A stretch of DNA of 64,000 nt from Candidatus Tectimicrobiota bacterium (GCA_016192455.1 JACPUC010000010.1:1-64000), one strand, 5' to 3'. Counted from the stretch's first letter, positions 11,652 to 30,829 are shown. The notes: generated from the sequence alone by a model not told the origin. Translations and numbers: made by a program.

Positions 11652-11793
11652 GTGCGCTGTTTCTCAAATTAGTTGCAGAGAGTTGCGAGGGAGCCTCGCC
11701 CCCTCGCGCACGCCGCCTTGTGGGGGAGGTTCGCGAACCGCCCCTACGGCATGGGGGTGTGGGGAGCAAGGGTCCCCCACAGAATATATCCCC
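11652..11793 (+). repeat. About 140-bp dispersed structured repeat, copy 1, with a GTAG-type REP-like palindrome (11720-11747)
   Basis: Aligns end to end with the reverse complement of 17009-17152; core GGTTCGCGAACCGCCCCTAC. Confidence 0.85.
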
Positions 11794-15257: not shown

Positions 15258-15334
15258 TGTCGTTCCTCCTCCCCTGAGTCCGCGAACCGCCTTGCCGAGC
15301 TGTACCTGCCCCCGCTCTACAACCAACGTCACCG

Positions 15335-16927
15335 TTAGTCAAGGCAGACGTCGCGCCGCGGCCACCAGCGCGGAATGCCGTAGTCCTCGCAGATGACCCC
15401 TGCCGTGATGTACCCGGGGTAGCCCCGCAGGTTGCCGCCGGGATGCACGTGCGAGCCGCAGAGGTAAAGGTTGGGGATGGCGGTGCGGTAGGGGGGACGG
15501 TTCTCCATGAGCTGGCTGGCCTTGTAGCTGATGCCGCTGAAGGCGCCGCGGCGCATGTTGACGAGGGTGCGCTCGATGTCCAGCGGGGAGTAGGCGATCT
15601 TGCCCAGGATGTTGGCCTCGTCGAGGTTGTCGGCATGGTCGCGCCAGGTCTTCAGGCAGCGCTCCATCTGCACCATCTTCAGGTCGTCCCAGCGCGCCGC
15701 GCCGCCGTCCTTCAGCTCGTAAGGGGCGGGCTGCCAGAGGTAGGAGACATGGCCGCCGTTGCGCGGCCCCTGGGTGCGGTCGAAGATCGTCATGCAGCCG
15801 GCGCCGAAGCTCGCCTCGCTGGCCACCTCGCCGCTGCGCAGCATGCGCCGCGCCTCGGGGATGCGGTCGAAGGTGGGGTGGCCGACGTTCCACTTGATGG
15901 CGCGGTCCACGTCGGGGTTCTTCTTTGCCGCATGGTGACGCGGCGGCTCCTTCATGGCGAGGTAGACGCCGAAGATGCTCAGCTCGCTCATCTCGTAGCC
16001 GCGCATGCGGGCGGCGAAGGCGGCCTGCTCGGAGGAGAGGGCGGCGCCATCGAGGAGGGTGCCGAAGGTCTGCTCGAGGTCGATGTTGCTGACGACGCAC
16101 TTCTTGGCGCGGAAGGTGCGGCCGTCGCTGGTGCGCACGCCGACGGCGCGGCCGTCCTCGAGGAGAATCTCCCGCACCGGCGCGTGTTCGAGGAGCAGGC
16201 CGTTGTTCTGCGCTATGATGTGCTCGAGGGCGTGGGAGAGGTCGTGGCTTCCCCCCTTGCAGACGGTGAGGTGCGTCCAGCCGCGGAAGTTCTTGATCAG
16301 CGTGCCGTCGATGCCCGGCTCATCGGGAAGCGAGCTGGGGGCGTCGATCATGTAGATGAGGAGACACTTCAGGATGTCCGTCTCGAAAATCTCGTCCGCC
16401 ACCTCCAGGGGGGTGCGCTTGATGATCGACAGGTAGCGGCGGCCATCGGCGCTCTTCGAGTAGAGGGCCTGCCGCTCCGCCATGGGGCGCGGCGGGTTGA
16501 GCCACTCGGGGATGGCGAACTTCTCCGCCAGGCGGACCCACTCGTGCCCCACCTCGCGGTAGACCTTGGCGTCGCGCTGCGAGAACTGGGCGATCGACTT
16601 GCAGGTCAGCTCGATGTCGTCGTAAACCACCAGGGCGCGCCCGTCGGGCAGAATCTGGGCGATCTTCGCGGGGGGCGTGAGGAGGGTGCAGTACTTCGGC
16701 AGCTCGAGGTCGGTGACCACGGGGGAGTAAGCGAAGTCGCTGAAGTTCGTGGCGTGGTGGTTGACGTAGAAGCCCGGCACGCCCGGGAACTCGATGCTGC
16801 ACAAGCCGCCGCCGAACTCCATGCGCCGCTCCAGCAGCAGCACCCGCTCGCCGGCCTTGCCGAGGTAGCCGGCCAGGATCATGGCGTTGTGCCCCGATCC
16901 GATGATGATGACGTCGAAGTCGCTCAT
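15335..16927 (-). CDS. Phytoene-desaturase-like (COG1233) FAD oxidoreductase, paralog 1
   Basis: IIIGSGHN, LERRMEFGGG, NLYLCGSHVHPGG; start set at MSDFDV. Confidence 0.88.
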   Translation of the reverse strand: MSDFDVIIIGSGHNAMILAGYLGKAGERVLLLERRMEFGGGLCSIEFPGVPGFYVNHHATNFSDFAYSPVVTDLELPKYCTLLTPPAKIAQILPDGRALVVYDDIELTCKSIAQFSQRDAKVYREVGHEWVRLAEKFAIPEWLNPPRPMAERQALYSKSADGRRYLSIIKRTPLEVADEIFETDILKCLLIYMIDAPSSLPDEPGIDGTLIKNFRGWTHLTVCKGGSHDLSHALEHIIAQNNGLLLEHAPVREILLEDGRAVGVRTSDGRTFRAKKCVVSNIDLEQTFGTLLDGAALSSEQAAFAARMRGYEMSELSIFGVYLAMKEPPRHHAAKKNPDVDRAIKWNVGHPTFDRIPEARRMLRSGEVASEASFGAGCMTIFDRTQGPRNGGHVSYLWQPAPYELKDGGAARWDDLKMVQMERCLKTWRDHADNLDEANILGKIAYSPLDIERTLVNMRRGAFSGISYKASQLMENRPPYRTAIPNLYLCGSHVHPGGNLRGYPGYITAGVICEDYGIPRWWPRRDVCLD

Positions 16928-17008
16928 GCCGTTTCCTCCTCGGCAGGCGCCGCTCCTGTTACGCCGCACACGTTCGATGCTGAATTCGACGCCTTGCTCG
17001 CGCCATGT

Positions 17009-17152
17009 GGGGGGGGGAATTTTTGTGGGGACCCTTGCTCCCCCACACCTCCATGCCGTAGGGACGGTTCGCGAACCGCCCCTACAAGGCGGGGTGCGCG
17101 AGGGGGCGCGGCTCCCTCGCAAATCTCCGCGATCTCATTTGAGCAACCGCAC
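17009..17152 (-). repeat. About 140-bp dispersed structured repeat, copy 2, inverted relative to copy 1
   Basis: Core GTAGGGACGGTTCGCGAACCGCCCCTAC at 17058-17085. Confidence 0.85.
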
Positions 17153-17153
17153 C

Positions 17154-17660
17154 CTAGGTTTCGTCAAGGACCTTGATGTTGCTGTTCAGAATCCGCGCCA
17201 CGTTGCTGATGAACTGCCCCTCGAGTTGGTTGCGCTTGCTCTTCAGGACCGCCTCGAAGATGCGCCGCAGCCGCCCCACCGCCTCGACGTCGATGGTGTA
17301 GACGATGCACGTCTGCTCCTCGCCCTGGGGGCTGAGGTCGAGCTGAATCTCCACCTGGGCGGTGGCGCCCTTATCGACGTCGCGCACGCGCTGGGCGAAG
17401 GCTTCGCCGGAATACGACACGCCGTGGGCGCGCAGGCGCGCCGGCGGCCGGCGCTCGGTGACCGTCATGTGGGCGCGGTTCTCGACCGGAATGAGGCCGA
17501 TCTTCAGCCGCATGAGGAGCTCGACGTTGTCCTCGTCGATCTGCTGGTGCCCCTCGCAGGTGGGCACGCAGGACGCCAGCGTCGAGACGTCGTTGAAGAA
17601 GGTCCACACTTTCGCGATCGGCACGTCAGCGAGCAGGCGGTTATGGAGCGTCAGTTTCAT
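17154..17660 (-). CDS. CoxG / SRPBCC (START-fold) protein
   Basis: VWTFFNDVSTLASCVPTCE pattern typical of CoxG. Confidence 0.8.
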   Translation of the reverse strand: MKLTLHNRLLADVPIAKVWTFFNDVSTLASCVPTCEGHQQIDEDNVELLMRLKIGLIPVENRAHMTVTERRPPARLRAHGVSYSGEAFAQRVRDVDKGATAQVEIQLDLSPQGEEQTCIVYTIDVEAVGRLRRIFEAVLKSKRNQLEGQFISNVARILNSNIKVLDET

Positions 17661-17669
17661 GCCACGGCC

Positions 17670-19238
17670 TCATTGAGCCAGCCCGAGGTCCTCGAGGATG
17701 ATGGTTGCGGCGTTCCCTCCGGGCGAGCCGATGATGCCGCCGCCGGGATGGCAGCAGGCGCCGCAGAGGTAGAGGTTCTTGATCGGCGTGCGGTGCTGGG
17801 AGAGCTCGGGGGAGGGGCGGAAGTAATCGAGCTGGTCAAAGGACATGCGCCCCATGAACACCCCGCCGTGACGCATGTTGATGAGCTTGCGCTCGATGTC
17901 GAGGGGCGAGTAAGCGACCCGCGCCAGAATGACGCGGTCCGTGAGGTTGGGGGCATACTCCCGCCAGGCTTCCAGGCACCAGTCGGTGAACTCCTCCTTG
18001 ATGGCGTCCCAGCGCTCGGCGCCGCCGTCGCGCAGGTGGTACGGCGCGAGCTGCCAGATGAGGGCGGTGTGCTTGCCGGGGGGCGCCTGAGAGCGGTCGA
18101 AGAGGGTGGGAACGCTGCAGAAGAGGGCCGGCTTCGTCGGCACCTCGCCGGCGCGCACCTGGGCCAGGATGGTATCGAAGTCGGCGGGCGTCTCCAGGCC
18201 GATGTTGAGCCTGAAGGCGCGGTCCACGTTGGAGTCGAAGGCGGCGGCGCGGTGCCGCGGCGGCTCCGCCAGCGCCAGGTGCACGCTGAAGAGGGAGAAC
18301 TCGTCGAGCTTGTAGCGCCCGACCCAGCGGCGCGTCGCCTCGTCGAGGTGCTCCGGCTGGAGGAAGACGTTGAAGGTCTGGTGGATGTCCACCGCGCTGA
18401 TGACGGCTTTGTCGGCGCGCACCTCGGCGCCGTCCTCCAGGACGATGCCGCGGGCGGCGCCGTTTTCGACGATGATGCGCTGCACGTGGCTGCGGTCGTG
18501 CAGGGTGCCGCCGAAGGTCACGAACGCCTTGCCGAGGGCATGCCCCAGCACGTGCGAGCCGCCCAGACAGAGTTGCGAGTGCTCCACCATGCTGATGACC
18601 AGGGGGATGACGGCGCCCACGCCATGGTAGTCCGGCAGGATGCCGCGCGGCACCGGCAACTGGTGGAGAATCAGCGCCTTCACCTCTTCGCACTCGAAGA
18701 GCTCGTCGACCACGTCGCGCGGGCTCATGCGGCCGAGGCGTAGGAACTCCCGCCCCTCGGGGCTCTTCTCGAGCATCTCCATCTGCTGGGTGGGAGGCAC
18801 GGCCGGCGTGAACAGGGCGGGAATGATGACGAGCTCGATGAACTCGCGGTAGGCGTCGTAGACCTCGCGGTACGTCGCGGCGTCGCGCTGCGAGAAGCGG
18901 CCGATGGAGGCGCAGGTATCGTCGATGGTGCGCGCGAAGGTGAGGGCCCGGCCGTTGCGCAGGGGCAGCCCGGCGGTCACCTCGGGGCGCGCGTAGCGGG
19001 CGTTGAAGCGCACCAGCTCCAGGTCCTCGTAGGGGGGCATGATGTTGATCGTATCGTGGAAGTAGGAGTGCAGGTTGTGGTAGAAGCCGGGGAGGGTGCA
19101 TTCCTCGGTGGAGAGGCCGCCGCCGTACTCGAGGCGGCGCTCGAAAATCACCACCCGCAGCCCCGCCTTGGCCAGGTAGCTGCCGGCGATGAGGCCGTTG
19201 TGGCCACCCCCGATGATGACGATATCGAACTCCGCCAT
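17670..19238 (-). CDS. Phytoene-desaturase-like FAD oxidoreductase, paralog 2
   Basis: [51 protein letters not shown]. Confidence 0.9.
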
Positions 19239-19322
19239 GCCCAATCCTTACGCGAGACGAGTCCTTGAAGGCAGATGGTAGCCTCTCAATGTCCAACCCC
19301 CAGAGGACGGCCCTCTGGGGGA

Positions 19323-19455: not shown

Positions 19456-20379
19456 CTAGACGGTGCGAAGCCGCGGCGCCTGGGTGAGAGGAAGGTAGAT
19501 GCCCGCCTTGGCAATGCTGTACTTCACGAAGAAATCACCGATCACCGAGGTGAGGCCGAGGATGGCCAGCCCTCCCATCGACAGCGGCGACATCATCCCC
19601 AGGATGCCCATGGCGATCGGCGCCAGCAGGCCGACAACCAAGGTGCCCACGTAGAAGCTGATCGACACCCGCCCATTCAACAGCTCGTGCACCGACTGCC
19701 GGGCCACCGGGTTGGCGCCGGAGATGACGCCGAGATAGAAGAGGATCATCACCAGCGCCGAGGCGCCGATCCAGAGCTCGATGAGCTCCAGGTTGGCGGG
19801 GTGGAAGGTCGGCTGGAAGAGGGCGATGACCACCAGGAGCATGGCGACCCCCCCGCGCAACCCATAGGCGACGTAGAGCGCCGGCAGGATGGGAGAGTTC
19901 CAGAAGGGGATGCCTATCGAGGAGGAGTAGACGAACCCCTTGTAGAGGAGCATCATCACCGCCCCCGCCATGGCCACGACGTTGCCGGCCCAGCTCAACC
20001 AGGAGTTGGCGCCCCACGGCGCGCCCGCCACGACGTGCGGCAGGAGCGCGAAGAAGCCGCCGACGATGAAGAGGTTCAGGCCGATGAAGCCGCGGGCGAT
20101 CCAGGCGGTGCGCGCGTGCCACATGCGCCAGAAACGGCTCGGCCGGCCGAGGAAAAGGAGGTGGGCAAGGCCGCTGAGCAGGGCAAGGACGTAGGCCGCC
20201 AGGGCGCCGCCCACGAACTGGAAGGCCAGCGCAAAGACCCAGGTGCCCGCCGCCACGCCGGAGAGGAAATGGCCGATGATGAGCAGCAGCCCCTGCCGCT
20301 CGATCCATTCCCGCTGCGGGCGATACTGGGCCCGCAGGTCCTGCAAGAGTTGCTCGTAGCGCCCTCTCGTGCTGTCCAC
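19456..20379 (-). CDS. NrfD/PsrC/DmsC-type membrane anchor subunit
   Basis: HLLFLGRPSRFWR, WIARG, IPFWNSP, about 8 TM helices; GTG start after GGGGAG. Confidence 0.85.
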   Translation of the reverse strand: MDSTRGRYEQLLQDLRAQYRPQREWIERQGLLLIIGHFLSGVAAGTWVFALAFQFVGGALAAYVLALLSGLAHLLFLGRPSRFWRMWHARTAWIARGFIGLNLFIVGGFFALLPHVVAGAPWGANSWLSWAGNVVAMAGAVMMLLYKGFVYSSSIGIPFWNSPILPALYVAYGLRGGVAMLLVVIALFQPTFHPANLELIELWIGASALVMILFYLGVISGANPVARQSVHELLNGRVSISFYVGTLVVGLLAPIAMGILGMMSPLSMGGLAILGLTSVIGDFFVKYSIAKAGIYLPLTQAPRLRTV

Positions 20380-20661
20380 GATGATCTCCCCCTCTGCCGC
20401 TTGCCAGAAGCGGTTTGCTATCGATCTTTGCCCGCGGTGTGCCACCAACGCCGCCGCGCCTGTCGTGCTGGAGGAACGGCCCCCTTGGGGCGATGCCGCA
20501 TCCAAACCTGCGCGGGACCGGCATCCCACGTGGTCCACACTCCCAAGCTGGCGCGCAGGCGCGGGCGCCAGGGAAGAGTGGAGACCACGCCCGCGCGCCG
20601 CCCTGCCGCGGCGGAGAGAACTCTCCGGCTTGCCTGGCGCAGTTTGGCGCATTGCCGCCGA

Positions 20662-21270
20662 CTACGGTGGCAGGTAGTAAACGCTGGGTCCGGTGCCGAG
20701 TTCCGGGTGCAGCGTGTAGCCGCCGCGCTCCTTGATGAGGTGCGACACCTGGCTGCGCGGATCGTCGAGGTCGCCGAAGTAGCGCGCCACCGTCGGGCAG
20801 TTGGCCACGCAGGCCGGCTCCTTGCCCTGGGCCGTGCGCTCCCGACAGAAGTCGCACTTCATCACCACGCCTTCCTGGTGACGCTGCACGCGCATCTGCT
20901 CGTAGGGCGTGGCGCCGTTGTTCGGGAAGTAGTGGCGGTTCTCGTCGTTGAAGTAGCGCGCCCCGTACGGGCAGGCCATCATGCAGGCGCGGCAGCCGAC
21001 GCAGATGTCGGCGTCCACCGCGACCACCCCGTCGGCCTCCGACTTGGCGGTCGCGCCCGTCGGGCAGACCTCCTCGCAGGGCGGCTCCTCGCAATGGAAG
21101 CAGAGGACCGGCAGGAAGATCATGCTGACGGTCGGGTAGGTGCCCTCCTCGTGCTTCAGGACCCGCGCGAAGAAGACTCCGGGCGGCGTTCCATGTTCAG
21201 CCTTGCAGGAGAGCTGGCAGCCGTAGCAGCCGATACACCGTTTCAGGTCTATGACCATTCCCCATCGCAT
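20662..21270 (-). CDS. Four-cluster 4Fe-4S subunit (DmsB/PsrB/PadC-like)
   Basis: MVIDLKRCIGCYGCQLSC, CFHCEEPPCEEVCP, CVGCRACMMACP, KCDFC...CVANCP. Confidence 0.95.
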   Translation of the reverse strand: MRWGMVIDLKRCIGCYGCQLSCKAEHGTPPGVFFARVLKHEEGTYPTVSMIFLPVLCFHCEEPPCEEVCPTGATAKSEADGVVAVDADICVGCRACMMACPYGARYFNDENRHYFPNNGATPYEQMRVQRHQEGVVMKCDFCRERTAQGKEPACVANCPTVARYFGDLDDPRSQVSHLIKERGGYTLHPELGTGPSVYYLPP

Positions 21271-23846
21271 CGCGTCACCCCCACTTTGACGCACAGGTCC
21301 AAATTCAGGTTGGCTGGGCTGCTATGCTCCATGTCAACCTCAAGGAGATCATTGATGAAGACCCCTTTGCCCTTGGCAATCGGCTGGGCCTCGGTCCAGT
21401 GGCCGGCGCAGGCGGCGATGCCCAACCCCTCCGGATGGATCGCCTCGGTCAGGTGGACCCGGCCGCGGATGCGCCGACCCTTCACCGATTCAATCCACAC
21501 CCAATCCCCATCCTTCAGGCCCTTGCGGCGGCCGGCTTCGCTGTGCATGGCAGCGGTGTAGGAGAAGGGATCGAGCTGGGCCGTCTCGTCCAACCATGGG
21601 TTCTCCATGGTGAAGCTGTTGGTATGGATGGCGTCGCGATAGTAGAAGGCGTAGAGGTCATGCTGCTCCGACGTCTCCTCATGGGAGACGCAGGGGAGGA
21701 AGCTCGGCAGCGGTGAGTAGTACTCGCGCGGGATGTGCCAGCCGCGCGGCTCCGCCAGGGCGTTCGCCTGCTCCCATGTGTCGATGAGAAACTCCCAGTA
21801 GATGGGCACGCGCACGTTCTCGAAGTGGCGCCAGTACACCTCCTCCGGTTTCTTCGGCCACTTTATGACGCCGTGCTGCTTGAACCACTCGAGGCCGTGT
21901 TCGGGGCCGAAGTTCGACTTCAACTCCATGTCGCAGATTTCCCGGTACGTGTAGCGCTTGTCGCGCTCCAGGCGAAACGGCGCCGCAAGCCGCATGGAGA
22001 CGTTGTACCCCTCGTTGAGGTCTTCACGGATGCCGATGCGGTCGGCCAGCTCAACGAGCAGCTCGGAGGACTCGCGGCGCTCCCCCGCGGCTTCCACCAC
22101 CGGCTGCTTCACCGGCCAGCACCACTCTCCCATGCCGCCCGGCAGATTGAAGATGAACGGGAAGTTCGGCCGCGAATCGTGCGCCTCCATGTAGCTGCAG
22201 TCGGGCAGCACGATGTCGGCGAACTCGGAGAACTCGGTGATGAAGAGATCGATGGAGATGATGAAGGGGATGCGCTTCAGGGTCTTCGCCACCGTCTCCG
22301 CGTTGCCGACGCTGAGAAGCGAGTTGCAGCCGAAGTTCAGGAGCACCTCCGGCCGGTAGGGGAGGTCGAAGCGCTGCCACATCTCTTCCTGATCGGAGGA
22401 GGCCATGAGGGGCGACATCATGGTCATCGGGTAGAGGTCGATGAGACTCATCGTTTCCGGCATGCGCGGCTCGTGCATGGGGTACGGCAGGTGCGGCGCC
22501 ATCCAGATGCCGGTGATCATCAGCCCGTCTTCGTCGGCGTAGGGGATGTAGTGCGGCCGGCCGGTCTCGGGGTGGCCGTGGCAGGAGGGGTTGAAGCCGA
22601 GGCACCCCCCCACCATGTCCGCCGAGCCGACGAGTTCGTTCAGGAGGTCCACGGCGAGGAAGTTGTAGACCGAGTTCTTGTGTCCCTGGGCGCCGCGGAA
22701 GGCGATGGCCGCCACCGGCCGGTACGGCAGGGTGCGCCCCTGCACCTCGATGGTGCTGCCGATGCGCGCCTCGCGCCCGAACTCCTGCCCGAGGCGGCGG
22801 ATGGTGGCGGCGGGCACGGTGCTGATCGACTCGCCCCACTCCGGCGTCAGCGGCTTGAGGTGGGCCTTGAGCCGCTCGAAGGCCGTCGGGCACTCGAGGC
22901 CGCTGACCGTGTGCACCCCTTCCAGGGCCATCTGCTCCGGCTCGACGGCGTCAAACGGCTTGGCGCTCTTCGTCTGGGTGTCCCAGACGAGCGGCTTGTT
23001 CGTCGCCGCGTCGCGCAGGTAGCGGCCGTCGGGGCCGGTCAGGTACGGGCCGTTCGTCTTCGCTTTCAGGTAGGGGGAGTCCCACAGGCGCAGCTCGTGC
23101 ACCAGGGTGTGGCACATGCCGAGGGCGATCGCCGCGTCGGTCCCGACGCGCAGCGGCACCCACTCGGTGGCCTTGGCGCCGGCGAAGTTGCAGATGGGGT
23201 CAACCACCACCATGTGCATGCCGCGCGCCCGGGCGTCGGCCGCCATGCCCATGTTGGAGCAGGAGGCATGGCCGGCGCTGTGGCCCTTCGAGGCGCCAAA
23301 GTAGACGGCGTAATTGCAATACTGGAAATCCGGCACCACCGACCAGGAAGCGTGCATGATGCCGCTGATGAGGTGGGCGCCGTTGCCGCAGTGCAGGCCG
23401 CCGCCGGCCACCCACGAGTTCGGCGTGCCGAAGGCCCAGCCGAAGACCTGCCAGGGGGTCCGGCTGGAGGTGTTCGTGGTGGTGCGCTGGATGAAGAGCT
23501 TGCGGGGATCATCCTGGCGCACGTGGCGCAGCTTCTCGCCGACGATGTCCAGCGCTTCGTCCCAGGAGATCTCCTCCCACTTCGGGTCGACCCCGATCCC
23601 CTTCTCCGGGTTCGTGCGGCGCAGCGGCTTGTTGAGGCGATGCGGGTCGTAGAGCGTCATGATGCCGCTGATGCCCTTGCCGCACAGCCGCCCCTTGCCC
23701 AAGACGCTCTCCGGGTTCCCTTCGATCTTCGTCAGAACACCGTCCACGCGGTGCCCCAGGATCGAGCAGGTGCCGTAGCACATGCTACAGGCCGAGGGAA
23801 TCCACACGTCCTCGGCCGCAACCGGCGCCTGAGCTGCTACCACCAT
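21249..23846 (-). CDS. Molybdopterin (bis-MGD) oxidoreductase catalytic subunit, copy A, no TAT leader
   Basis: CSMCYGTC...RLCGKG, ISWDEALD, GGGLHCGNGAH, ADIVLPD, C-terminal HTNS / GHW. Confidence 0.93.
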   Translation of the reverse strand: MVVAAQAPVAAEDVWIPSACSMCYGTCSILGHRVDGVLTKIEGNPESVLGKGRLCGKGISGIMTLYDPHRLNKPLRRTNPEKGIGVDPKWEEISWDEALDIVGEKLRHVRQDDPRKLFIQRTTTNTSSRTPWQVFGWAFGTPNSWVAGGGLHCGNGAHLISGIMHASWSVVPDFQYCNYAVYFGASKGHSAGHASCSNMGMAADARARGMHMVVVDPICNFAGAKATEWVPLRVGTDAAIALGMCHTLVHELRLWDSPYLKAKTNGPYLTGPDGRYLRDAATNKPLVWDTQTKSAKPFDAVEPEQMALEGVHTVSGLECPTAFERLKAHLKPLTPEWGESISTVPAATIRRLGQEFGREARIGSTIEVQGRTLPYRPVAAIAFRGAQGHKNSVYNFLAVDLLNELVGSADMVGGCLGFNPSCHGHPETGRPHYIPYADEDGLMITGIWMAPHLPYPMHEPRMPETMSLIDLYPMTMMSPLMASSDQEEMWQRFDLPYRPEVLLNFGCNSLLSVGNAETVAKTLKRIPFIISIDLFITEFSEFADIVLPDCSYMEAHDSRPNFPFIFNLPGGMGEWCWPVKQPVVEAAGERRESSELLVELADRIGIREDLNEGYNVSMRLAAPFRLERDKRYTYREICDMELKSNFGPEHGLEWFKQHGVIKWPKKPEEVYWRHFENVRVPIYWEFLIDTWEQANALAEPRGWHIPREYYSPLPSFLPCVSHEETSEQHDLYAFYYRDAIHTNSFTMENPWLDETAQLDPFSYTAAMHSEAGRRKGLKDGDWVWIESVKGRRIRGRVHLTEAIHPEGLGIAACAGHWTEAQPIAKGKGVFINDLLEVDMEHSSPANLNLDLCVKVGVTRCDGEWS

Positions 23847-23931
23847 GCCTTGTTTCCTCCTCCCTTGGGTGAGGCTTCGTTCCGCACCACCTGGACGTCT
23901 TCGGAGCGTGCCTCTCGGTGGTGTTGGAGAG

Positions 23932-24225
23932 CTAGCCCCCTTCCGCCGCCGGTAGGAGCATGAGACTCACTTCCGTCGGCAACCCATTGATTTGCAGCAC
24001 GGTATCGAGATCGGTCACCTCGGTCTCGTTCACGAAGATGCGCAGGTAGGTCTGCAAGGCCCTGGGGTTGCGCATGATGCGCTGCCGGAACTCCGGTCCG
24101 AAGCGCGCCTCCAGGGCGTCGAGGGCATCACGGAGATGCGCGGGCTCGGCCAGCTCGAGCTGCAGGTCGCGCGTGCCGGCCATGGCCCCCAGCATGCCGA
24201 AAAGCTTGATCGTCACGAGCGCCAC
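23932..24225 (-). CDS. MoaD/ThiS-like beta-grasp sulfur-carrier protein, copy A
   Basis: VTIKLFG, RIFVN, C-terminal PAAEGG. Confidence 0.88.
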   Translation of the reverse strand: MALVTIKLFGMLGAMAGTRDLQLELAEPAHLRDALDALEARFGPEFRQRIMRNPRALQTYLRIFVNETEVTDLDTVLQINGLPTEVSLMLLPAAEGG

Positions 24226-24289
24226 CGGCCTCTCCTCTCCTCTGGTGTGCTGTAATAGTTACTGATACTACTGTTTCAGCACGACGAAA

Positions 24290-24303
24290 TTGACGCCGGT
24301 CAA
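24290..24303. promoter_or_regulatory. Crp/Fnr-type palindrome TTGAC-N4-GTCAA upstream of unit A
   Basis: TTGACGCCGGTCAA in an AT-rich spacer; same motif upstream of unit B. Confidence 0.7.
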
Positions 24304-24375
24304 ACTCCACATAATTTTTTCTTTTTTCCGTTGGTTTATGTCTACGCCCCCTTCAGCCGCCGGCGTGCGCGCCGC

Positions 24376-27009
24376 TCACGCCTCCTCGCAGCGCCGCAGC
24401 CGCACCTTCACGCAGAGATCAAGGTTGAGGTTCACCGGGCTGGCGTGGTCCATGTCGATTTCCAGCAGTTGATTGAAAAAGACCCCCTTGCCCCGCGCCA
24501 CCGGCATGCCATCGGTCCAGTGGCCGGCGCAGCCGCCGATCCCCAGCCCTTCAGGATGCATCCCCTGCGTGAGGTGGACGCGCCCACGCACCCGCCGCCC
24601 TTTCACGGTCTCCATCCACACCCAGTCGCCGTCGTGCAGGCCTTTTTTCTTGCCGGTCTCGGCGTTCATGGCGATGTAGTACGAGTTCGGGTCGAGCTGC
24701 GCCGTCTCGTCCAGCCAGGCGTTCTCCTGCGTCAGGCTGTTGGTGTGGATGGTGTCGCGGTAGTAGAAGCCGTAGAGGTCGAACTGCTCATCGCTGCACT
24801 CGTGGCCGGGGCAGGGGAGCCAGGTGGGGAGGGGATCGTAGAACTCCTCCGGCAGGTGCAGGCCGCGCGGCTCGGCCAGCGCTCGCGCCTGATCGCCGAC
24901 GCGCTTCAGGTACTCCCAGTAGATCGGCACCCGCACCTCAACGAAGGGGCGCCAATAGACCTCCTGCGGCTTCTTCGGCCAGGAGAGAACGCCGTGCTCC
25001 TTGAACCACGCGAGATCGTGCCGCGGGCCGAAATTCGACTTCAGGTGCTGGTCGCAGACCTCGGCGAAGCTGTACTGCTGACTGCCCTTCAGGGTGAACG
25101 GCGGCTGCAGCTTCAGCAGGGCGTTCAAGGCCATGTTGATGTCTTCGCTGATGCCGACGCGCTCCGCCAGCTCGAGGAGCACCTGGTTCATCTGCCGGCG
25201 CTCGGCGACCGGCTCGATGAGCGGCTGCCGAACCGCCCAGCACCAGTCGCCCATGCCCCCCGGCAGGTTGAAGATGAAGGGGTAGTTGGGCTTCGAGTCC
25301 AACTGCTCGAGGTAGCTCATGTCGGGCAGGACGATGTCGGCCAGGTCGGAGAGCTCCGTCCTGAAGAGGTCGAAGGAGACGATGAACGGGATGCGCAGCA
25401 GGGTATTGATGACCGTTTCGCTGTTGCCGACGCTCATCACCGAGTTGCAGCCGATATTGATCATCACCTCCGGGCGGTAGGGGAGATCGAAGCGCTGCCA
25501 GCGCTCCTCCTGGTCCGCGGAGGCCATGAGGGGCGAGCTCATCCCCAGCGGGAAGAGCTCGTTGAAGCCCATCGACTTCGGCATGCGGGGGTACTCGAAG
25601 GGGTAGGGCAGGTGGGGGACCATCCAGCTCCCCGTCACCATGAGGCCGTCGGGGCCGGCGTAGGGGACGTAGGCGGGACGCTTTGTCTCCGGGTGGCCGT
25701 GGCAGACCGGGTTGAACCCGAGGCAGCCGCCGACCACGTCCGCCGCCCCGACGAGGTGGTTCAGGAGGTCGATCGCCAGGAAGTTGTAGACGGCGTTGCG
25801 GTGCCCCTCGGAGCCGCGGAAGGCGATCGCCGCCACCGGCCGGTACGGCAGCCGCACCCCGTCGATGACGATGGTGCTCCCCACCCGCGCCTCGCGCCCG
25901 AACTCCTGCCCCAGGCGGCGGATCGTCGCCGCCGGGATGGTGGTGATTGGTTCCGCCCACTCCGGCGTGTGCCGTGCCAGGTGTTCCTTCAGGCAGGCGA
26001 AGGCCGGCCGGCAGCGCACCCCCTGCGCCTCGTACTCCCCTTCCAGCGCCAGCTCGCCCAACGGCTCCTGCCCAAGCTTCTCGGCGTTGTACGGGCGCGC
26101 CCGCCCGGCCGTGGCATCCCACACCAGCGGCTCCTGGGTCTCGGCGTCGCGCACGTAGAGCTTGTCGGGGCCGATCAGGTAGGGCGCGTTCGTCTTGGAG
26201 GCCAGGTAGGGCGCGTCCCAGATGCCGAGCTCGTTGACGAGGACGTGCGCCATCGCCAGGGCCAGCGCCGCATCCGTGCCGACGCGGATCGGCACCCACT
26301 CGTTCGCCTTGGCGGCGGCGAAGTTGCACATCGGGTCCACCACCACCATCTTCATGCCGCGCACCCGCGCGTCCGCCGCCAGCCCCATGTTCGAGCAGGA
26401 GGCGTGCCCGGCGGCGTGCCCCTTCGAGGCGCCGAAGTAGACGGCGTACTGGCAGTGCTCGAAATCCGGCACGATGGACCACGAGGCGTGCATGATGCCG
26501 CTGATGAGATGGGCGCCGTTGCCGCAGTGCAGCCCGCCGCCGGCCACCCACTGGTTCATGGTGCCGAAGGCGTGGCAGAAGGCGTGGCAAATCGGCCCGA
26601 TGGTGGTGTTCGTGGTGGTGCGCTGCAGGAAAAGCTTGCGGGGGTCCTCGGCGCGCACCTTGCGCAGGCGCGCGGCGATCTCGTCGAGGGCCTCGTCCCA
26701 GGTGATCTCTTTCCAGCCGGGGTCGACGCCCACCCCCTTCTTCGGATTGGTGCGCCGCAGGGGGACGTTCACCCGGTTCGGGTCGTAAAGCGTCATGATG
26801 CCGCTGATGCCCTTGGCGCAGAGGCGTCCCTTGCCGATCTCGCTCGCCGGGTTGCCCTCAATCTTCGTCACCACGCCATTGACGCGATGGGCAAGGATCG
26901 AGCAGGTGCCGTAGCACATGCTGCAGGCGGAGGGGATCCAGCGATCCTCGCCGTTGGCCTCGTGGGCGCGCTCCGTCTCCGGAGTTTTCTGTTCAAACGC
27001 CTGGACCAT
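24376..27009 (-). CDS. Molybdopterin (bis-MGD) oxidoreductase catalytic subunit, copy B, no TAT leader
   Basis: Collinear paralog of 21249..23846 with long identical stretches such as WIPSACSMCYGTCSIL and WVAGGGLHCGNGAHLISGIMHASWS. Confidence 0.93.
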   Translation of the reverse strand: MVQAFEQKTPETERAHEANGEDRWIPSACSMCYGTCSILAHRVNGVVTKIEGNPASEIGKGRLCAKGISGIMTLYDPNRVNVPLRRTNPKKGVGVDPGWKEITWDEALDEIAARLRKVRAEDPRKLFLQRTTTNTTIGPICHAFCHAFGTMNQWVAGGGLHCGNGAHLISGIMHASWSIVPDFEHCQYAVYFGASKGHAAGHASCSNMGLAADARVRGMKMVVVDPMCNFAAAKANEWVPIRVGTDAALALAMAHVLVNELGIWDAPYLASKTNAPYLIGPDKLYVRDAETQEPLVWDATAGRARPYNAEKLGQEPLGELALEGEYEAQGVRCRPAFACLKEHLARHTPEWAEPITTIPAATIRRLGQEFGREARVGSTIVIDGVRLPYRPVAAIAFRGSEGHRNAVYNFLAIDLLNHLVGAADVVGGCLGFNPVCHGHPETKRPAYVPYAGPDGLMVTGSWMVPHLPYPFEYPRMPKSMGFNELFPLGMSSPLMASADQEERWQRFDLPYRPEVMINIGCNSVMSVGNSETVINTLLRIPFIVSFDLFRTELSDLADIVLPDMSYLEQLDSKPNYPFIFNLPGGMGDWCWAVRQPLIEPVAERRQMNQVLLELAERVGISEDINMALNALLKLQPPFTLKGSQQYSFAEVCDQHLKSNFGPRHDLAWFKEHGVLSWPKKPQEVYWRPFVEVRVPIYWEYLKRVGDQARALAEPRGLHLPEEFYDPLPTWLPCPGHECSDEQFDLYGFYYRDTIHTNSLTQENAWLDETAQLDPNSYYIAMNAETGKKKGLHDGDWVWMETVKGRRVRGRVHLTQGMHPEGLGIGGCAGHWTDGMPVARGKGVFFNQLLEIDMDHASPVNLNLDLCVKVRLRRCEEA

Positions 27010-27027
27010 GAAGAGACCCTCCTGCGA

Positions 27028-27408
27028 CTAGCCCCCTTCAACCGCCGACATCACCATGAGACCAACGCGGGCCTGCTCCTCCCCACGAGGTTTCGCGCTC
27101 GCCCTGTCGGCTGCGTGAGTACCCTCGCCATCATGGGAAATCGTGCCAACGTCGAGATGAGGCGGCAGCGAGGCGGTAAGCGGGGTATCAAGGTCGTCGA
27201 CGGGAACATCGTCAAGGAAAATGCGCACGTACGTCTGCAGCACGCCGGGCTGCCGGAAGATCGCTTCGCCGAACTTGGCGCCGAAGTGTTCTCCCAGAAC
27301 CTCGAAGAGGTCCCTCAGCCGCGCCCCCTCGGCAAGCTGCAGAGCAACGCTGCGCTCCCCCATCTGCAGACCAAGGATGCCGAACAGCTTCACCGTAACG
27401 TGAATCAA
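27028..27408 (-). CDS. MoaD/ThiS-like protein, copy B, with an internal insertion
   Basis: VTVKLFG, LQTYVRIF, DLDT, C-terminal SAVEGG; TTG start. Confidence 0.8.
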   Translation of the reverse strand: MIHVTVKLFGILGLQMGERSVALQLAEGARLRDLFEVLGEHFGAKFGEAIFRQPGVLQTYVRIFLDDVPVDDLDTPLTASLPPHLDVGTISHDGEGTHAADRASAKPRGEEQARVGLMVMSAVEGG

Positions 27409-27495
27409 AAGGCCCCCCGAGGCTGGCGGCTATGGAGATGAAGGCAGGCAGACCACGTTTCTTACACATGTTGCTAGATTTTCCACCGACTGTCC

Positions 27496-27509
27496 TTGAC
27501 GGTTGTCAA
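27496..27509. promoter_or_regulatory. Crp/Fnr-type palindrome TTGAC-N4-GTCAA upstream of unit B
   Basis: TTGACGGTTGTCAA in the divergent intergenic region. Confidence 0.7.
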
Positions 27510-27598
27510 GTTCTCGACAGGTTCTGTTGTTGCTGGAACTTCCGGGCAGAGCCGGCCCCCGGCGCGGCTCGGGGGCGCGGCGTCGGACGCCGCGGTTT

Positions 27599-27614
27599 TG
27601 GCACGCTTCTCGCA
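27599..27614 (+). promoter_or_regulatory. Sigma54 (-24/-12) promoter of the 2-oxoacid oxidoreductase operon
   Basis: TGGCACGCTTCTCGCA with GG-N10-GC spacing, about 35 nt before the ATG at 27649, which has an AAGGAG RBS. Confidence 0.7.
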
Positions 27615-27648: not shown

Positions 27649-28599
27649 ATGATGCGCGTGCGCTTCCACGGTCGCGGCGGCCAGGGGATGAAGACGGCGA
27701 GTCGCATCCTCGGGTCGGCCGCTTTCCACGCCGGGCTGGTTGTGCAGGACTCGCCGGTGTACGGGGCGGAGCGTCGCGGCGCGCCGGTGGCGGCGTTCAC
27801 CCGCATCGCCAAGGCGGCGATCCGCGAGCGTGGCCTCATCGCCGCGCCCGATCTGATCGTGGTGGCCGACGAGACACTCCTCTTCGAGCCCACCGCCATG
27901 CCCCTCGCCGGCTGCTCCGCGCGCACGGTCGTCCTCATCAACACCGCCACCGATGCCGCCGCGCTGCAGGAGCGGCTCGCCCATCTCGGCCGTATCGAGA
28001 GCGCCGATTTCACCTCCCTCGTCTTCTCGATCACGCACACCCTGGTGGGGCTGAGCACCGCCCTCGGCGTGGCCGCGGCCGCCCTCGTCGGCTTGAGCCT
28101 CGAGGAGAGCCTCGCCGGCGTGGCGGAGGAGCTGGCGCACGCCACCCTCAGCCGCGCCGCCTACGAGGCGAACGAGCGCCTGGCGCAGGAGGCCTACGCC
28201 CTCGCCGACGCCTGGCGGGCGGTCCCCGAGCCGCTCGACGCCTCCCTCGCCCTGGCTGCCGAGGCGGCTCCTACGGCCCTCCTCGCGGCAGCGCCCGCCG
28301 GAGCTCCTGGAACGCAGCTCGTCGAGCTGCGCTTCGAGCCGCCGGCGCGCGCCACCCCAACCATCTGCGTCGCCAACACCCCGGAACGCAGTACCGGGAG
28401 CTGGCGTCAGTTCCGGCCGCTCCTGCAGCGCGACCTCTGCAACGCCTGCTGGACCTGCTTCGTCCTCTGCCCGGAAGGCGCCATCGCCCTCGACGAGCAC
28501 GAATTTCCGCTGATCGACTACGAGGTCTGCAAGGGCTGCCTGGTGTGCGTCCACGAGTGCCCGACGCACGCCTTCGCCACCGAGAAGGAGGTGCGATGA
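27649..28599 (+). CDS. 2-oxoacid:ferredoxin oxidoreductase gamma subunit fused to delta (ferredoxin) subunit
   Basis: RFHGRGGQG, YGAERRGAPV; C-terminal TGSWRQFRP, CNACWTCFVLCP, CKGCLVCVHECP. Confidence 0.92.
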   Translation: MMRVRFHGRGGQGMKTASRILGSAAFHAGLVVQDSPVYGAERRGAPVAAFTRIAKAAIRERGLIAAPDLIVVADETLLFEPTAMPLAGCSARTVVLINTATDAAALQERLAHLGRIESADFTSLVFSITHTLVGLSTALGVAAAALVGLSLEESLAGVAEELAHATLSRAAYEANERLAQEAYALADAWRAVPEPLDASLALAAEAAPTALLAAAPAGAPGTQLVELRFEPPARATPTICVANTPERSTGSWRQFRPLLQRDLCNACWTCFVLCPEGAIALDEHEFPLIDYEVCKGCLVCVHECPTHAFATEKEVR

Positions 28600-29867
28600 G
28601 CCGCGCCGCCGACCTCGAGCGCGCCGCCGGCCGCCATGAGCGCGGCAGGCTCCTCACCGGCAACGCTGCCGCCGCCTGGGGGGCGAGCCTGGCGGACGTC
28701 GACTACATCCCCGCCTTCCCCATCACGCCGCAGACGGAGATCATCGAGACCCTGGCGGAATGGGTGGCCGACGGCGACATTGCGGCCCGCTTCGTCACCC
28801 TCGATTCCGAGCACTCGATGCTGAGCGCCGCCGGCGCCGCCGCCGCGGCCGGCGCGCGCGTCTTCACCGCCACCTCGAGCCAGGGGCTCCTCTACGGCTT
28901 CGAAATGCTCTACGCCATCGCCGGCTGGCGCGTGCCGCTGGTGCTGGTGAACGTGTCGCGGGCACTCGCCTCGCCCATCACCCTGGAGGCCGACCACAAC
29001 GACATCCTGGCGGCGCGCGACAGCGGCTTCCTGCAGCTCCACGCGGAGACCTGCCAGGAGGTCCTCGACTCGGTCCTCATGGCCTATCGCCTGGCCGAGG
29101 ACGCGCGCGTCATGCTGCCGGCGCTCGTCAACCTCGACGGCTTCACCCTCTCCTTCACCCGCGAGCCGGTGGTGGTGCCGGAAGCAGCGGCGGCGGCCGA
29201 GTTCCTGCCGCCGTACGAGCCGAACCACGCCGCCATCCGCGGCGACCGCCCCATGGCGCAGGGGCCGGCGGTGCTCAGCGGCTTGGCCTACAGCTACTTC
29301 CGCTACCAGCAGCAGTTGGCGCAACTCAATGCCCTGGAGGTGCACGAGGAGATCGCCGCCGAGTTCGCGGCGCGCTTCGGGCGGCGCTACGGGCTGGTCG
29401 AGCCGTTCGAGCTCGACGACGCGGAGTACGTCCTGGTGATGTCGAACGCCTTCGCCACCAAGGGCAAGGAGGCGGTGGAGCGCCTGCGCAGCCGCGGCCT
29501 GCGCGCCGGGCTGTTGCGCTTGCGGGTGCTGCGGCCGTTCCCCGCCGCGGCCATCGCCGACGCCCTCGAGGGACGCATGGCCGTCGCCGTCATTGACCAG
29601 AACCTGGCGCCGGGGCTGGGCGGCATCACTTACCAGGAGGTCGCCGCCGCCCTCTACGACCGGCCGAGGCGCCCGCCGCTGCTGAGCGTCATCGGCGGCC
29701 TCGGCGGCAAGGACATTTCCGACGTCGAGTTCGATGCGGTCTTCCACGACCTGCGGCGTGCCGCCGCGGGTGAATCCGTACGCAGTCCCCGCCTCCTGTT
29801 CACGCAGGCGGAGCAGGAGCGCATGCAGACCCTGCTGCGCATCGCCGGCAAGGGGGCCAAGCCATGA
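28596..29867 (+). CDS. 2-oxoacid:ferredoxin oxidoreductase alpha subunit
   Basis: FPITPQTE, SEHS, FTATSSQG, GLGGKD; ATGA overlap with the previous gene. Confidence 0.93.
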   Translation: MSRAADLERAAGRHERGRLLTGNAAAAWGASLADVDYIPAFPITPQTEIIETLAEWVADGDIAARFVTLDSEHSMLSAAGAAAAAGARVFTATSSQGLLYGFEMLYAIAGWRVPLVLVNVSRALASPITLEADHNDILAARDSGFLQLHAETCQEVLDSVLMAYRLAEDARVMLPALVNLDGFTLSFTREPVVVPEAAAAAEFLPPYEPNHAAIRGDRPMAQGPAVLSGLAYSYFRYQQQLAQLNALEVHEEIAAEFAARFGRRYGLVEPFELDDAEYVLVMSNAFATKGKEAVERLRSRGLRAGLLRLRVLRPFPAAAIADALEGRMAVAVIDQNLAPGLGGITYQEVAAALYDRPRRPPLLSVIGGLGGKDISDVEFDAVFHDLRRAAAGESVRSPRLLFTQAEQERMQTLLRIAGKGAKP

Positions 29868-30829
29868 GCGCGCCGGTGACCGCGGAAGTCGCCGCCATCA
29901 AGAACCTGAAGCAGATCGCCCGCGAGGAGTTCATCCTGCCCGGCACGGCGGTGTGCGGCGGCTGCGGCGGGCTGGAGGGGCTGCGCCTGGCGGCCAAGGT
30001 CCTCGGCTCCAAGACGGTCTACATCAACGCCGCCGGCTGCTTCACGCTGCTGGCCGTCTACCCCTACTCGCCGTTCAAGGGCTCCTGGCTCTACACCACC
30101 ATGGGCGGCGCGGCGGCGGCGGCCCAGGGGGTGCGCGACGCCCTCGACGTGCTGATGGCGCGCGGCAAACTGCCGGTCGAGGACGACGTGCAGGTCGTCG
30201 TCGTCGCCGGCGACGGCAGCACCTACGACATGGCCATGGCCGCCAACTCCGGCGCCATCTTCCGCGGCCTCGATTTCTGGTACTTCTGCTACGACAACGA
30301 GTCGTACGGCAACACCGGCGTGCAGATGTCCAGCGCCACGCCGTACGGCGCCCGCACCACCACGACGCCGGTGGGGAGCGCCGCGCGCGCCGGCACCGAG
30401 CACGGCAAGAAGGACCTGTTCGAAATCTGGCGCGCCCACCAGCCGGCCTACCTGGCCACCGTGTCGCCGCGCTACCCCGTGGACCTGACGAACAAGTTCC
30501 TGAAAGCGAAAGGCCTGCGCGGGCCGAAGCTGTTCATCGCCCACGCCTCCTGTCCCACCGGCTGGCTCTTCGAGCCGAAGCGCAGCGCCGAGGTGGCGAA
30601 GCTGGCGGTGCAGACGGGCATCTTCGCGCTCAAGGAGTGCGTCGGCGGCGCTGTCACCCACACCCATATCCCCCGCCGCCGCAAGCCGGTCGAGGAGTAC
30701 CTGCGCGGCCAGGGACGCTACGCGCACCTCTTCGAGCCGACCCGCAACGACGCCGCCCTCCGCCTCATCCAGGAGCAGGTGGACCGCTACTGGGAGGCGG
30801 CGGCGAAGGCGGGCGCCGCGTCCTCCTGA
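29864..30829 (+). CDS. 2-oxoacid:ferredoxin oxidoreductase beta (TPP-binding) subunit
   Basis: CGGCG, GDG...YDNESYGNTG, CPTGW. Confidence 0.93.
   Translation: MSAPVTAEVAAIKNLKQIAREEFILPGTAVCGGCGGLEGLRLAAKVLGSKTVYINAAGCFTLLAVYPYSPFKGSWLYTTMGGAAAAAQGVRDALDVLMARGKLPVEDDVQVVVVAGDGSTYDMAMAANSGAIFRGLDFWYFCYDNESYGNTGVQMSSATPYGARTTTTPVGSAARAGTEHGKKDLFEIWRAHQPAYLATVSPRYPVDLTNKFLKAKGLRGPKLFIAHASCPTGWLFEPKRSAEVAKLAVQTGIFALKECVGGAVTHTHIPRRRKPVEEYLRGQGRYAHLFEPTRNDAALRLIQEQVDRYWEAAAKAGAASS

Follow-up and report, generated by a model that had tools for sequence, protein, structure and literature searches.

A conserved MoaD-like gene in the operon of a putative cytoplasm-facing Fe-S molybdoenzyme of a Candidatus Tectimicrobiota bacterium

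Results

We analysed a stretch of 64,000 nucleotides from Candidatus Tectimicrobiota bacterium (GCA_016192455.1, JACPUC010000010.1:1-64000; the window), in which the operon of a putative molybdenum enzyme also carries genes for small ubiquitin-like (Ubl) proteins of the MoaD type. As can be seen from Table 1, six open reading frames (ORFs) lie in a row on the minus strand between positions 19456 and 27509, in the order UblB, MoB, UblA, MoA, Fe-S subunit and NrfD anchor, which is the order that the original prediction, made from the sequence alone, had given. In both Mo proteins, the Pfam domains Molybdop_Fe4S4, Molybdopterin and Molydop_binding occur in this order, and all three exceed the gathering score. 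The Fe-S subunit matches Fer4_11 and has DsrO as its best NCBIfam model (194.5 bits against a cut-off of 200), with ArrB-like matches too, and the anchor protein matches NrfD in the Pfam/NCBIfam profile search. One operon therefore holds the genes for a catalytic subunit, a four-cluster Fe-S subunit and an NrfD/PsrC-type anchor, the three subunits of a complex iron-sulfur molybdoenzyme, the assembly of which is predicted. UblA starts with GTG, and GGAGAGGAGAGG precedes this start.

Table 1. Features of the operon and of its surroundings in the window (aa, amino acids; nt, nucleotides; bisPGD, bis-pyranopterin guanine dinucleotide; OFOR, 2-oxoacid:ferredoxin oxidoreductase)
Feature	Position	Strand	Description
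UblB	27028-27408	-	126 aa; TTG start; ends AVEGG; MoaD/SAMP1-like beta-grasp protein
MoB	24376-27009	-	877 aa; Mo/W-bisPGD catalytic subunit; FS0 Cys motif; VAGGGLHCGNGAH loop
UblA	23932-24225	-	97 aa; ends AAEGG; MoaD/SAMP1-like beta-grasp protein
MoA	21249-23846	-	865 aa; Mo/W-bisPGD catalytic subunit
Fe-S subunit	20662-21294	-	210 aa; four Cys groups (four-cluster type); ORF overlaps MoA end
FeS-NrfD spacer	20380-20661	-	about 280 nt; unusually long; in frame with NrfD; Arg/Ala/Gly-rich
NrfD/PsrC-type membrane anchor	19456-20379 (ORF 19456-20652)	-	about 307 aa (probable start); about 8 hydrophobic segments
FNR/CRP-type box B	27496-27509		TTGACGGTTGTCAA; intergenic between UblB and divergent OFOR genes
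FNR/CRP-type box A	24290-24303		TTGACGCCGGTCAA; upstream of UblA, in the 150-nt MoB-UblA spacer
OFOR (PorC-PorD fusion, PorA, PorB)	27649-30829	+	divergent; PorC match from residue 52 of the ORF beginning at 27496
CrtI-like flavoprotein	17670-19244	-	downstream, same strand
COXG-like protein	17154-17660	-	downstream, same strand
Second CrtI-like flavoprotein	15335 to about 16930	-	downstream, same strand
Solute-binding protein	14079-15332	-	downstream, same strand
Reductive-dehalogenase-like protein	12739-13890	-	downstream, same strand

The ORF of the anchor extends upstream of the likely gene. NrfD homologs begin just ahead of the motif (S/A)xRYEQLIQDLR, so that, by this comparison, the true start is probably the codon at 20377-20379. 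The spacer behind the Fe-S gene then spans about 280 nt, versus roughly 10-90 nt at homologous loci, and has no counterpart in the homologs. It is not a dispersed repeat, as the genome holds no second copy of it.

We checked the operon against Logan contigs of four sequencing runs (X1-X4, all from one study labelled groundwater metagenome, of which one may be the source sample). Contigs span the MoA start, UblA, the upstream box and the MoB end (23756-24765 or further), as well as the MoB start, UblB and its upstream region (26857-27600), with 0 differences in either case. Some contig joints skip about 3.0-3.9 kb, with joint sides shorter than 30 nt; several of these (3127-3254 nt) match the offset between MoA and MoB, and we read them not as deletions but as cross-links between paralogs or strains. 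That one copy might be an artefact of assembly, a worry raised with the original prediction, or a pseudogene was rejected, since the reading frames are uninterrupted, the two proteins share 68% identity, and contigs bridge both Ubl junctions; an assembly artefact at the operon is thus unlikely.

MoA and MoB are collinear (the 68% identity extends over 856 columns), and the same loop VAGGGLHCGNGAH, with the putative Mo ligand, is present in both, as had been noticed. The ligand would be Cys153 of MoA, which aligns with a Cys of PsrA (2vpw; chain position 173 by our count on the alignment as printed) and also with one of ArrA (6cz7), residues that we take to be the Mo ligands of these two enzymes. 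Cys153 is invariant in 59 of 59 aligned rows, PadB-type outgroups included, and the FS0 Cys residues (C20, C23, C27 and C55 in MoA) are kept across the whole family described below. PsrA (E 1.5e-39) and ArrA are the two best solved relatives, acetylene hydratase (2e7z, E 5e-32) is among the best PDB matches, and the best curated model is PhsA, at 235 bits versus a cut-off of 694.

The Mo subunits have no twin-arginine translocation (TAT) leader. In 71 related Mo ORFs the distance from the preceding stop codon to the first FS0 Cys has a median of 34 residues, and the five RR-like matches shown precede a Met that lies before the conserved N-terminus. The sequence of the Fe-S subunit likewise contains neither a TAT leader nor a signal peptide. 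The missing leader, which the original prediction had pointed out, supports an enzyme that faces the cytoplasm, in so far as sequence can tell.

The genome contains a third Mo gene of this kind, an orphan on contig C27 without adjacent Ubl, FeS or NrfD genes. In a FastTree of 72 Mo proteins, which held no reference rows of PsrA, PhsA or ArrA, MoB paired with the C27 copy (88% identity, support 100), while MoA paired with a protein of another genome (L035; 74% identity, support 99); the branches separating MoA from MoB had a support of only 82. Because of these pairings, the MoA and MoB units are old paralogs, and the recent duplication is that between MoB and the C27 copy. The tandem arrangement, which had been taken for a duplication of one unit into the other, is therefore not a fresh event. 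None of 30 'same domain' genomes has the family, which is uninformative on the age of the arrangement.

Among the candidates scored for the family, 2143 cluster representatives were found at E <= 1e-20, most of them with an identity of 60-75%, and the best 120 of these 2143 are 64-75% identical to MoA. Those that carry a name in the sources are called 'molybdopterin-dependent oxidoreductase' or else 'molybdenum enzyme, large subunit, related to phenylacetyl-CoA:acceptor oxidoreductase', and the family ranges over Alpha-, Beta- and 'Delta'-proteobacteria and Binatia-like and Tectomicrobia metagenome-assembled genomes (MAGs). We collected 69 loci of named genomes, mostly MAGs (Rhodospirillales, Burkholderiales, Sterolibacterium, 'Deltaproteobacteria', Binatia and Tectomicrobia), with Aromatoleum toluclasticum as an isolate among them. 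These loci contain 73 family Mo genes, of which 54 could be assessed for their neighbours (nearly full length, with flanks of 450 nt or more upstream and 1700 nt or more downstream) and 19 were dropped.

The survey of these neighbourhoods, which had been proposed as a check on Ubl adjacency, revealed a conserved four-gene module. The complete set of Ubl, Mo, FeS and NrfD genes accompanies 29 of the 54 assessable Mo genes. A further 19 have none of the three partners, three have a Ubl only, one has Ubl and FeS only, and two have FeS and NrfD with no upstream Ubl called. A Ubl was called by the script at 29 of the 32 FeS/NrfD-bearing Mo genes, and the last-mentioned two also have one nearby (found by tblastn in L007, and lying between Mo and FeS in L014). 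Conversely, of the 22 Mo genes that lack FeS/NrfD, 19 come without a Ubl. From these counts, the Ubl gene is part of the core operon and does not go with every catalytic subunit (head), so that a dedicated Ubl for each head, as originally envisaged, is not the rule.

Several loci depart from this pattern. Two of them (L058 and L059) have family Mo genes in two or three pieces, and the Ubl of L058 is broken too; these may be decaying copies or frameshift errors. At L014:5276-9565 no stop separates the ORF of a fumarate-reductase-like flavoprotein from the Mo gene of the family, and the open frame spans 1429 aa between stops; the two genes are either fused or joined by an error in sequencing. 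Flavoproteins of this family are also encoded close to Mo genes in L029, L040 and L057 and, in the window, at 9649-11331. A second family of Mo genes, at 37-40% identity (upstream parts of L004, L005, L007 and L034; also L075 and L076), with the order Mo-NrfD-FeS or NrfD-Mo-FeS, adjoins the main module in Binatia-like and 'Delta' MAGs.

We analysed the Ubl proteins of the loci with jackhmmer, which gave 51 matches; two are the pieces of the broken L058 gene, leaving 49. The C-terminus is EGG followed by the stop in 42 of the 49, EAG in five, QGG in one, and Gly-Gly plus five further residues in one; Gly-Gly itself is found in 43 of the 49, both window copies included. G10 and G97 are invariant, and V6, L12, G43, F64, E95 and G96 nearly so. 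The AlphaFold model of UblA (mean predicted local distance difference test, pLDDT, 89.7) has the sulfur-carrier protein SAMP1 (3po0; E 1e-6, TM score 0.80) as its best Foldseek match, followed by MoaD2 (6jc0), P. furiosus MoaD (1vjk) and CysO (3dwg), with TM scores of 0.71-0.80 over the four and a probability of 1.00 for the top SAMP1 and MoaD matches. The beta-grasp protein with an EGG end that had been assigned to each copy is thus borne out, with a SAMP1/MoaD-like fold for UblA. A wide profile search returned a block of about 38 family Ubls, none with a Pfam domain on record, and then dropped to generic MoaD proteins. No fused forms of Ubl were seen among proteins of 222-2000 aa, which is weak evidence.

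UblB differs from UblA by a 29-residue insert ahead of the last strand and by a lower GC content at third codon positions (GC3), 0.73 overall and 0.65 in the insert, below that of the neighbouring genes (UblA, 0.87). UblB may be under weaker constraint. No indel in UblB was seen in the contigs of the Logan runs.

The two Ubls are not the genome's only MoaD-type genes, a possibility that had been set against the prediction: a genome-wide PF02597 search listed five other ThiS-family loci, with a moaD-moaE pair on contig C2 among them, and neither UblA nor UblB. This contig has the genome's sole MoaE match, and contig C4 its sole ThiF-family match (a MoeB-like E1, the open frame of which carries one TGA), in keeping with the earlier remark that no moaE or moeB lies in the window. 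There is one fdhD gene (contig C20) and one NarJ/TorD-type gene; neither these two nor any of the five ThiS-family loci or the ThiF-family gene lie on the contig of the window. E1, MoaE, JAMM and rhodanese genes are likewise missing among the 15 annotated recurrent neighbour clusters of the family, so that a thiocarboxylate on the Ubl would depend on the single, distant ThiF-family gene.

We modelled the complex of MoA and UblA, as had been suggested. The ipSAE score was 0.84-0.86 over three runs (0.85), as compared with 0.00 for each of three controls; the runs share at least 87% of contacts, with a partner pLDDT of at least 83. Of 157 solved complexes 116 reach the pass mark, as do 2 of 215 mismatched pairs; these counts are only a rough calibration because our own alignments were used (MoA A3, UblA A2). 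Searched by sequence, the PDB has no entry that pairs a MoaD-like chain with a bisPGD enzyme, and the score is therefore unlikely to reflect memory of a solved complex. The model supports binding of UblA to MoA. On the Ubl side the predicted interface takes in the whole tail (residues 89-97), and on the Mo side residues 137-146, 448-461 and 606-625, plus G150 and H158, which flank Cys153. From this interface, the Ubl tail would enter the substrate funnel toward the Cys153 loop. The tail of MoaD enters MoaE in a similar fashion.

Of the eight Ubl positions with the highest conservation, five (G10, F64, E95, G96 and G97) are in the interface. On the Mo side, T123, W448, G467 and S478 show a conservation of 0.85-1.00 across the family and its orphans, but at each of them at least four of the five outgroup Mo proteins (PadB, L071, L073 and two L007 copies, the latter two having Ubls) have another residue. 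The conservation of these four positions in the orphans fits orphan heads that use a Ubl in trans.

It is possible that the Ubl is instead a stable fourth subunit, a plug or gate without sulfur chemistry, with a tail that gives the substrate funnel its shape or closes it, and that acts as chaperone of the apo-enzyme, in protection from oxygen or as a regulator. A tail predicted to sit in the funnel, the fixed position of the Ubl gene in the operon, the five Ubls that end in AG, and the missing E1, desulfurase or rhodanese in the 15 annotated neighbour clusters would all suit such a subunit. However, the terminal Gly lies exactly at the stop in 48 of the 49 Ubls, which is the signature of C-terminal activation and needless for a plain subunit, and we regard the plug as improbable.

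The genome, which is 88% complete, has three family Mo genes, one FeS gene of the family type and one NrfD gene (tblastn); its next best Fe-S match is 46% identical and sits with another enzyme. These numbers agree with the proposal that several catalytic subunits share a single Fe-S subunit and membrane anchor. Related genomes show similar ratios, with eight family Mo copies and one NrfD in G002, four and two in G005, and three and two in G006. Two draft MAGs, G003 with six Mo copies and G004 with 23 Mo matches (fragments included), had no NrfD found, and a zero in a draft proves little. G004 is a marine Rhodospirillaceae MAG (the genome of L032) in which several of the matches stand in tandem, such as four each on C61 and C16. 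With three catalytic paralogs and one Fe-S/NrfD pair, the heads most likely take turns on one module.

We also considered that only MoA works in a membrane complex, and that MoB and the C27 copy are stand-alone cytoplasmic hydratases or enzymes served by a soluble ferredoxin. This would explain why 19 of the 54 Mo genes have none of the three partner genes and why G003 and G004 have many copies and no NrfD, and acetylene hydratase, a relative among the best PDB matches, is monomeric. Yet MoB lies in one gene string with FeS-NrfD, with no terminator-like site on the minus strand in between, the FS0 Cys residues are kept family-wide, and an NrfD missing from draft MAGs is weak evidence. We find this division of labour doubtful.

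The source names refer to phenylacetyl-CoA:acceptor oxidoreductase, PadB, and we compared the family with the pad genes of A. toluclasticum. This genome has two PadI genes above the curated cut-off, and the adjoining Mo genes are 29% and 34% identical to MoA; it has in addition two family copies at 65%, L072 (Ubl-Mo-FeS-NrfD) and L053 (Ubl-Mo). Orthology to PadB is ruled out by the 29-34% identity beside a true PadI and by the separate 65% copies in the same genome, and the same two facts make the family, as far as sequence comparison goes, a sister of PadB and not PadB itself. PadBCD, too, consist of a Mo-bisPGD protein, an Fe-S protein and a membrane subunit, and the pad-cluster Mo genes are the outgroup next to the family in the FastTree. 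The Pad pathway feeds a 2-oxoacid oxidoreductase, according to the accessible part of PMC5109826, and an OFOR adjoins the window operon. This OFOR is, however, not a phenylglyoxylate dehydrogenase (PadEFGHI): its scores are under the cut-offs (PadE 76/300, PadG 300/700, PadI 136/700), with a better fit to PorC/D/A/B. The A. toluclasticum PadB beside PadEFGHI (L070:5120-7879) also lacks the CxxCxxxC FS0 motif that is kept in the window family.

Directly upstream, this PadB has no Ubl but an FdhD/NarQ gene (260 bits), itself preceded by the divergent gene of a PaaX-type regulator. FdhD lies upstream of PadB in two close relatives as well. For formate dehydrogenases, FdhD is proposed, in the accessible part of PMC13653126, to supply the bisPGD cofactor with sulfur. 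In the position ahead of the catalytic gene, one clade thus has FdhD and its sister clade a sulfur-carrier-like Ubl, which is suggestive, no more. Both are accessory genes that immediately precede the gene of a Cys-ligated bisPGD catalytic subunit; FdhD has an unrelated fold and chemistry, in that its dimer carries a Cys persulfide and binds the cofactor prior to insertion. The fdhD of the window's own genome is far from the operon, on C20.

PsrABC/PhsABC and ArrAB resemble the window enzyme in the aligned Mo-ligand Cys, the four-cluster Fe-S subunit and the NrfD-type anchor. These enzymes have TAT leaders and face the periplasm. In contrast, the window family has no leader and has a Ubl partner, and its PhsA score is 235 against 694. 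Given such relatives, the Ubl could be a substrate or co-substrate, in that a Psr/Phs-like Mo site acts on sulfur bound to the Ubl glycine and links the thiocarboxylate to the quinone pool. The closest relatives handle sulfur compounds (PhsA by model score, PsrA 2vpw by E value), the tail is predicted near the Cys153 loop, the Fe-S subunit is just under the DsrO cut-off, and NMT1/SsuA-type binding proteins recur in the neighbourhoods. On the other hand, the conserved context is mostly carbon catabolism (decarboxylases, CoA ligase, enoyl-CoA hydratase and OFOR), most orphan heads have no Ubl, and among the Mo genes compared, which did not include PsrA, PhsA or ArrA, the family is nearest to pad-cluster genes. 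PadB acts on a carbon substrate (PMC5109826, accessible part). We consider a Ubl substrate very unlikely.

A MoaD-like gene next to a pterin-dependent enzyme has a precedent. MoaD genes are strictly adjacent to genes of tungsten aldehyde:ferredoxin oxidoreductases (AOR), for which enzyme-specific cofactor synthesis has been proposed (Iyer, Burroughs and Aravind 2006, PMC1779556, accessible part). As in the window family, the MoaD-like gene of these clusters strictly adjoins the enzyme gene and lies apart from the main cofactor operon. AOR is of another fold and family, however, and its clusters often include MoeB, MoaE or MoaA, which are absent from the 15 annotated recurrent neighbours of the window family, for which direct binding of the Ubl to the enzyme is predicted. 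The window Ubls share the beta-grasp fold and terminal Gly-Gly with SAMP1, MoaD and CysO, and differ from them in a conserved Glu at position -3, in scores below the cut-offs, in the predicted bisPGD partner and in having no adjacent E1, MoaE or JAMM gene.

By analogy with AOR (PMC1779556), the Ubls could be ordinary extra MoaD copies that work with MoaE in molybdopterin synthase to raise the supply of cofactor on induction of the enzyme and do not act on the Mo subunit. Their fold and Gly-Gly end match MoaD, and the genome offers only one MoaE and one ThiF-family gene. Nevertheless, direct binding to the Mo subunit receives a high score in the complex model, where the controls give 0.00, the family-invariant interface residues are absent from four or all five of the outgroup Mo proteins, the conserved Glu at -3 and sub-threshold ThiS scores set the Ubls apart from generic MoaD, which forms a separate and weaker block, and a canonical moaD-moaE pair is already present. 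A role as extra MoaD thus appears unlikely on its own; it is not mutually exclusive with a role on the Mo subunit.

As noted in the original prediction, a palindrome lies upstream of each Ubl gene. The sequence TTGACNNNNGTCAA occurs exactly twice in the 64-kb window in a pattern search (boxes A and B, Table 1). For TTGAC-N4-GTCAA the two matches compare with 0.01 expected, and 0 of 100 shuffles reached two. A repeat finder gave intragenic pairs only and missed the boxes because their arms, of 5 nt, are short; inspection of the sequence and the pattern search revealed them. Across the 4.46 Mb of the genome there are six exact TTGAC-N4-GTCAA sites and 22 of the looser form TTGAY-N4-RTCAA. TTGA-N6-TCAA is the shape of the FNR/CRP consensus, and the dyad upstream of the operon has this shape, as a sequence pattern. 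One of the 22 looser sites, a degenerate box, lies about 300 bp upstream of the C27 Mo copy, so that all three Mo genes of the genome are preceded by FNR-type boxes. The genome has three Crp-type helix-turn-helix genes.

Box B could serve both the UblB and the OFOR operons. Our scan for promoters gave no sigma-70-like site. The same kind of scan found no minus-strand terminator between MoB and UblA, and because of this read-through from the UblB promoter into FeS-NrfD would be possible; the only two terminator-like sites are both on the plus strand, a count below the shuffled expectation. Elsewhere in the genome (G000), degenerate FNR-type boxes at C31:226092, 228710 and 257168 flank the gene of a Crp-type regulator (C31:228321-228545), and a further Fe-S/Mo enzyme locus (C31:257981) follows about 800 bp behind one of these boxes, which hints at an anaerobic regulon.

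We examined 17 clusters of recurrent neighbours, 15 from other loci plus two window proteins. These include solute-binding or transport proteins of the TctC, tripartite ATP-independent periplasmic (TRAP) and NMT1 types, enzymes (UbiD and Amidohydro_2 decarboxylases, thiamine pyrophosphate enzymes, CoA ligase and enoyl-CoA hydratase), a fumarate-reductase-like flavoprotein and IclR regulators.

The wider surroundings yielded several observations. CrtI/phytoene-desaturase-like flavoproteins are strongly expanded in the genome, with about 13 loci by tblastn, including 15335-19244 and 49505-51100 in the window; one also lies near a family Mo gene in L043. Of reductive-dehalogenase-like genes the genome has at least seven, including that at 12739-13890, and such genes are found near family Mo genes in L011, L019, L024 and L040. 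A dispersed repeat of about 150 bp at 17000-17160 of the window (also 11656-11777) has more than 100 blastn matches (72-92% identity) on nearly every contig and looks like a miniature inverted-repeat transposable element or an element of the repetitive extragenic palindromic type. The 595-aa CrtI-like ORF probably starts later than the listed TTG (17122), because this codon lies inside the repeat. The genes at 37025-38834 and 35793-39905, which encode 4-hydroxybenzoyl-CoA reductase beta/gamma-like, glutaryl-CoA-dehydrogenase-like and BadI/MenB-like enoyl-CoA hydratase proteins, fit an anaerobic degrader of aromatic acids.

Discussion

The above results suggest, with a probability that we put at roughly 0.55, that the operon encodes a cytoplasm-facing, quinone-linked Fe-S molybdoenzyme of a PadB-sister family, with exchangeable heads and a Ubl whose role lies in maturation or in the delivery of sulfur. 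The Ubl would dock on the catalytic subunit with its C-terminal EGG tail laid into the funnel toward the Mo-ligand Cys. As to its task there, a thiocarboxylate formed by way of the housekeeping MoeB may deliver sulfur to the Mo centre or the cofactor; alternatively, within the same role in maturation, the Ubl may cap the apo-enzyme. Electrons from an organic substrate at Mo would pass through FS0 and the four clusters to a quinone in NrfD, and MoA, MoB and the C27 orphan would take turns on the one Fe-S/NrfD pair. The neighbouring genes, the kinship with PadB and the FNR-type boxes point to oxidation or hydroxylation with water under anoxia, presumably of organic acids or their CoA esters, with a quinone as acceptor.

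Several observations weigh against this interpretation. By curated models UblA stays under the cut-offs (PF02597 ThiS 18.9/22.5, NF041918 SAMP1 38.1/60, TIGR01687 30.5/49.5), and UblB has no Pfam match and a SAMP1 score of 20.5 bits versus 60, in addition to its insert and low GC3. Five of the 49 Ubls end in AG and not GG, most heads without FeS/NrfD have no Ubl of their own, the annotated neighbour clusters contain no E1, MoaE, JAMM or rhodanese, and in the 37-40% sister family only two of the four copies examined have an upstream Ubl. The predicted interface is slightly less conserved than the rest of the protein (0.55 against 0.68 between A and B), and its conservation in the orphans is 0.67 against 0.75 elsewhere. 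With the genome 88% complete, a second FeS/NrfD pair is possible, and the orphan heads could act alone, like the related acetylene hydratase (2e7z). The parallel with FdhD is limited too, as FdhD precedes PadB in only three of nine full-length PadB-type loci (1.5 kb of flank each).

A more specific version of the maturation reading can be offered only tentatively. In it, the MoaD-like protein would dock on the finished bisPGD enzyme and place its C-terminal glycine (thio)carboxylate beside the metal, where it may install or renew the sulfido ligand, replacing FdhD, or carry a transferred atom or group; one Ubl and one FeS/NrfD socket would serve many heads.

The family is large, and no member of it seems to have been studied: the open-access literature, outside which most of the older PadBCD papers lie, contained neither a characterisation of the family nor a MoaD-like gene beside a PadB-like or Psr-like enzyme. 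The tie of MoaD to tungsten AOR genes is known, and that of a MoaD-like gene to a Psr/PadB-like enzyme appears to be new. A cultured carrier, A. toluclasticum (loci L053 and L072), makes bench tests feasible. If true, a Ubl that binds an enzyme of the DMSO reductase family would be a new type of maturation factor or subunit for a well-studied class, and bears on how and where bisPGD cofactors gain their sulfido ligand. The many heads with few anchors, more than 20 matches in some marine genomes, suggest that one Ubl and one respiratory socket may serve exchangeable heads, into which new substrate specificities would be plugged in a modular way.

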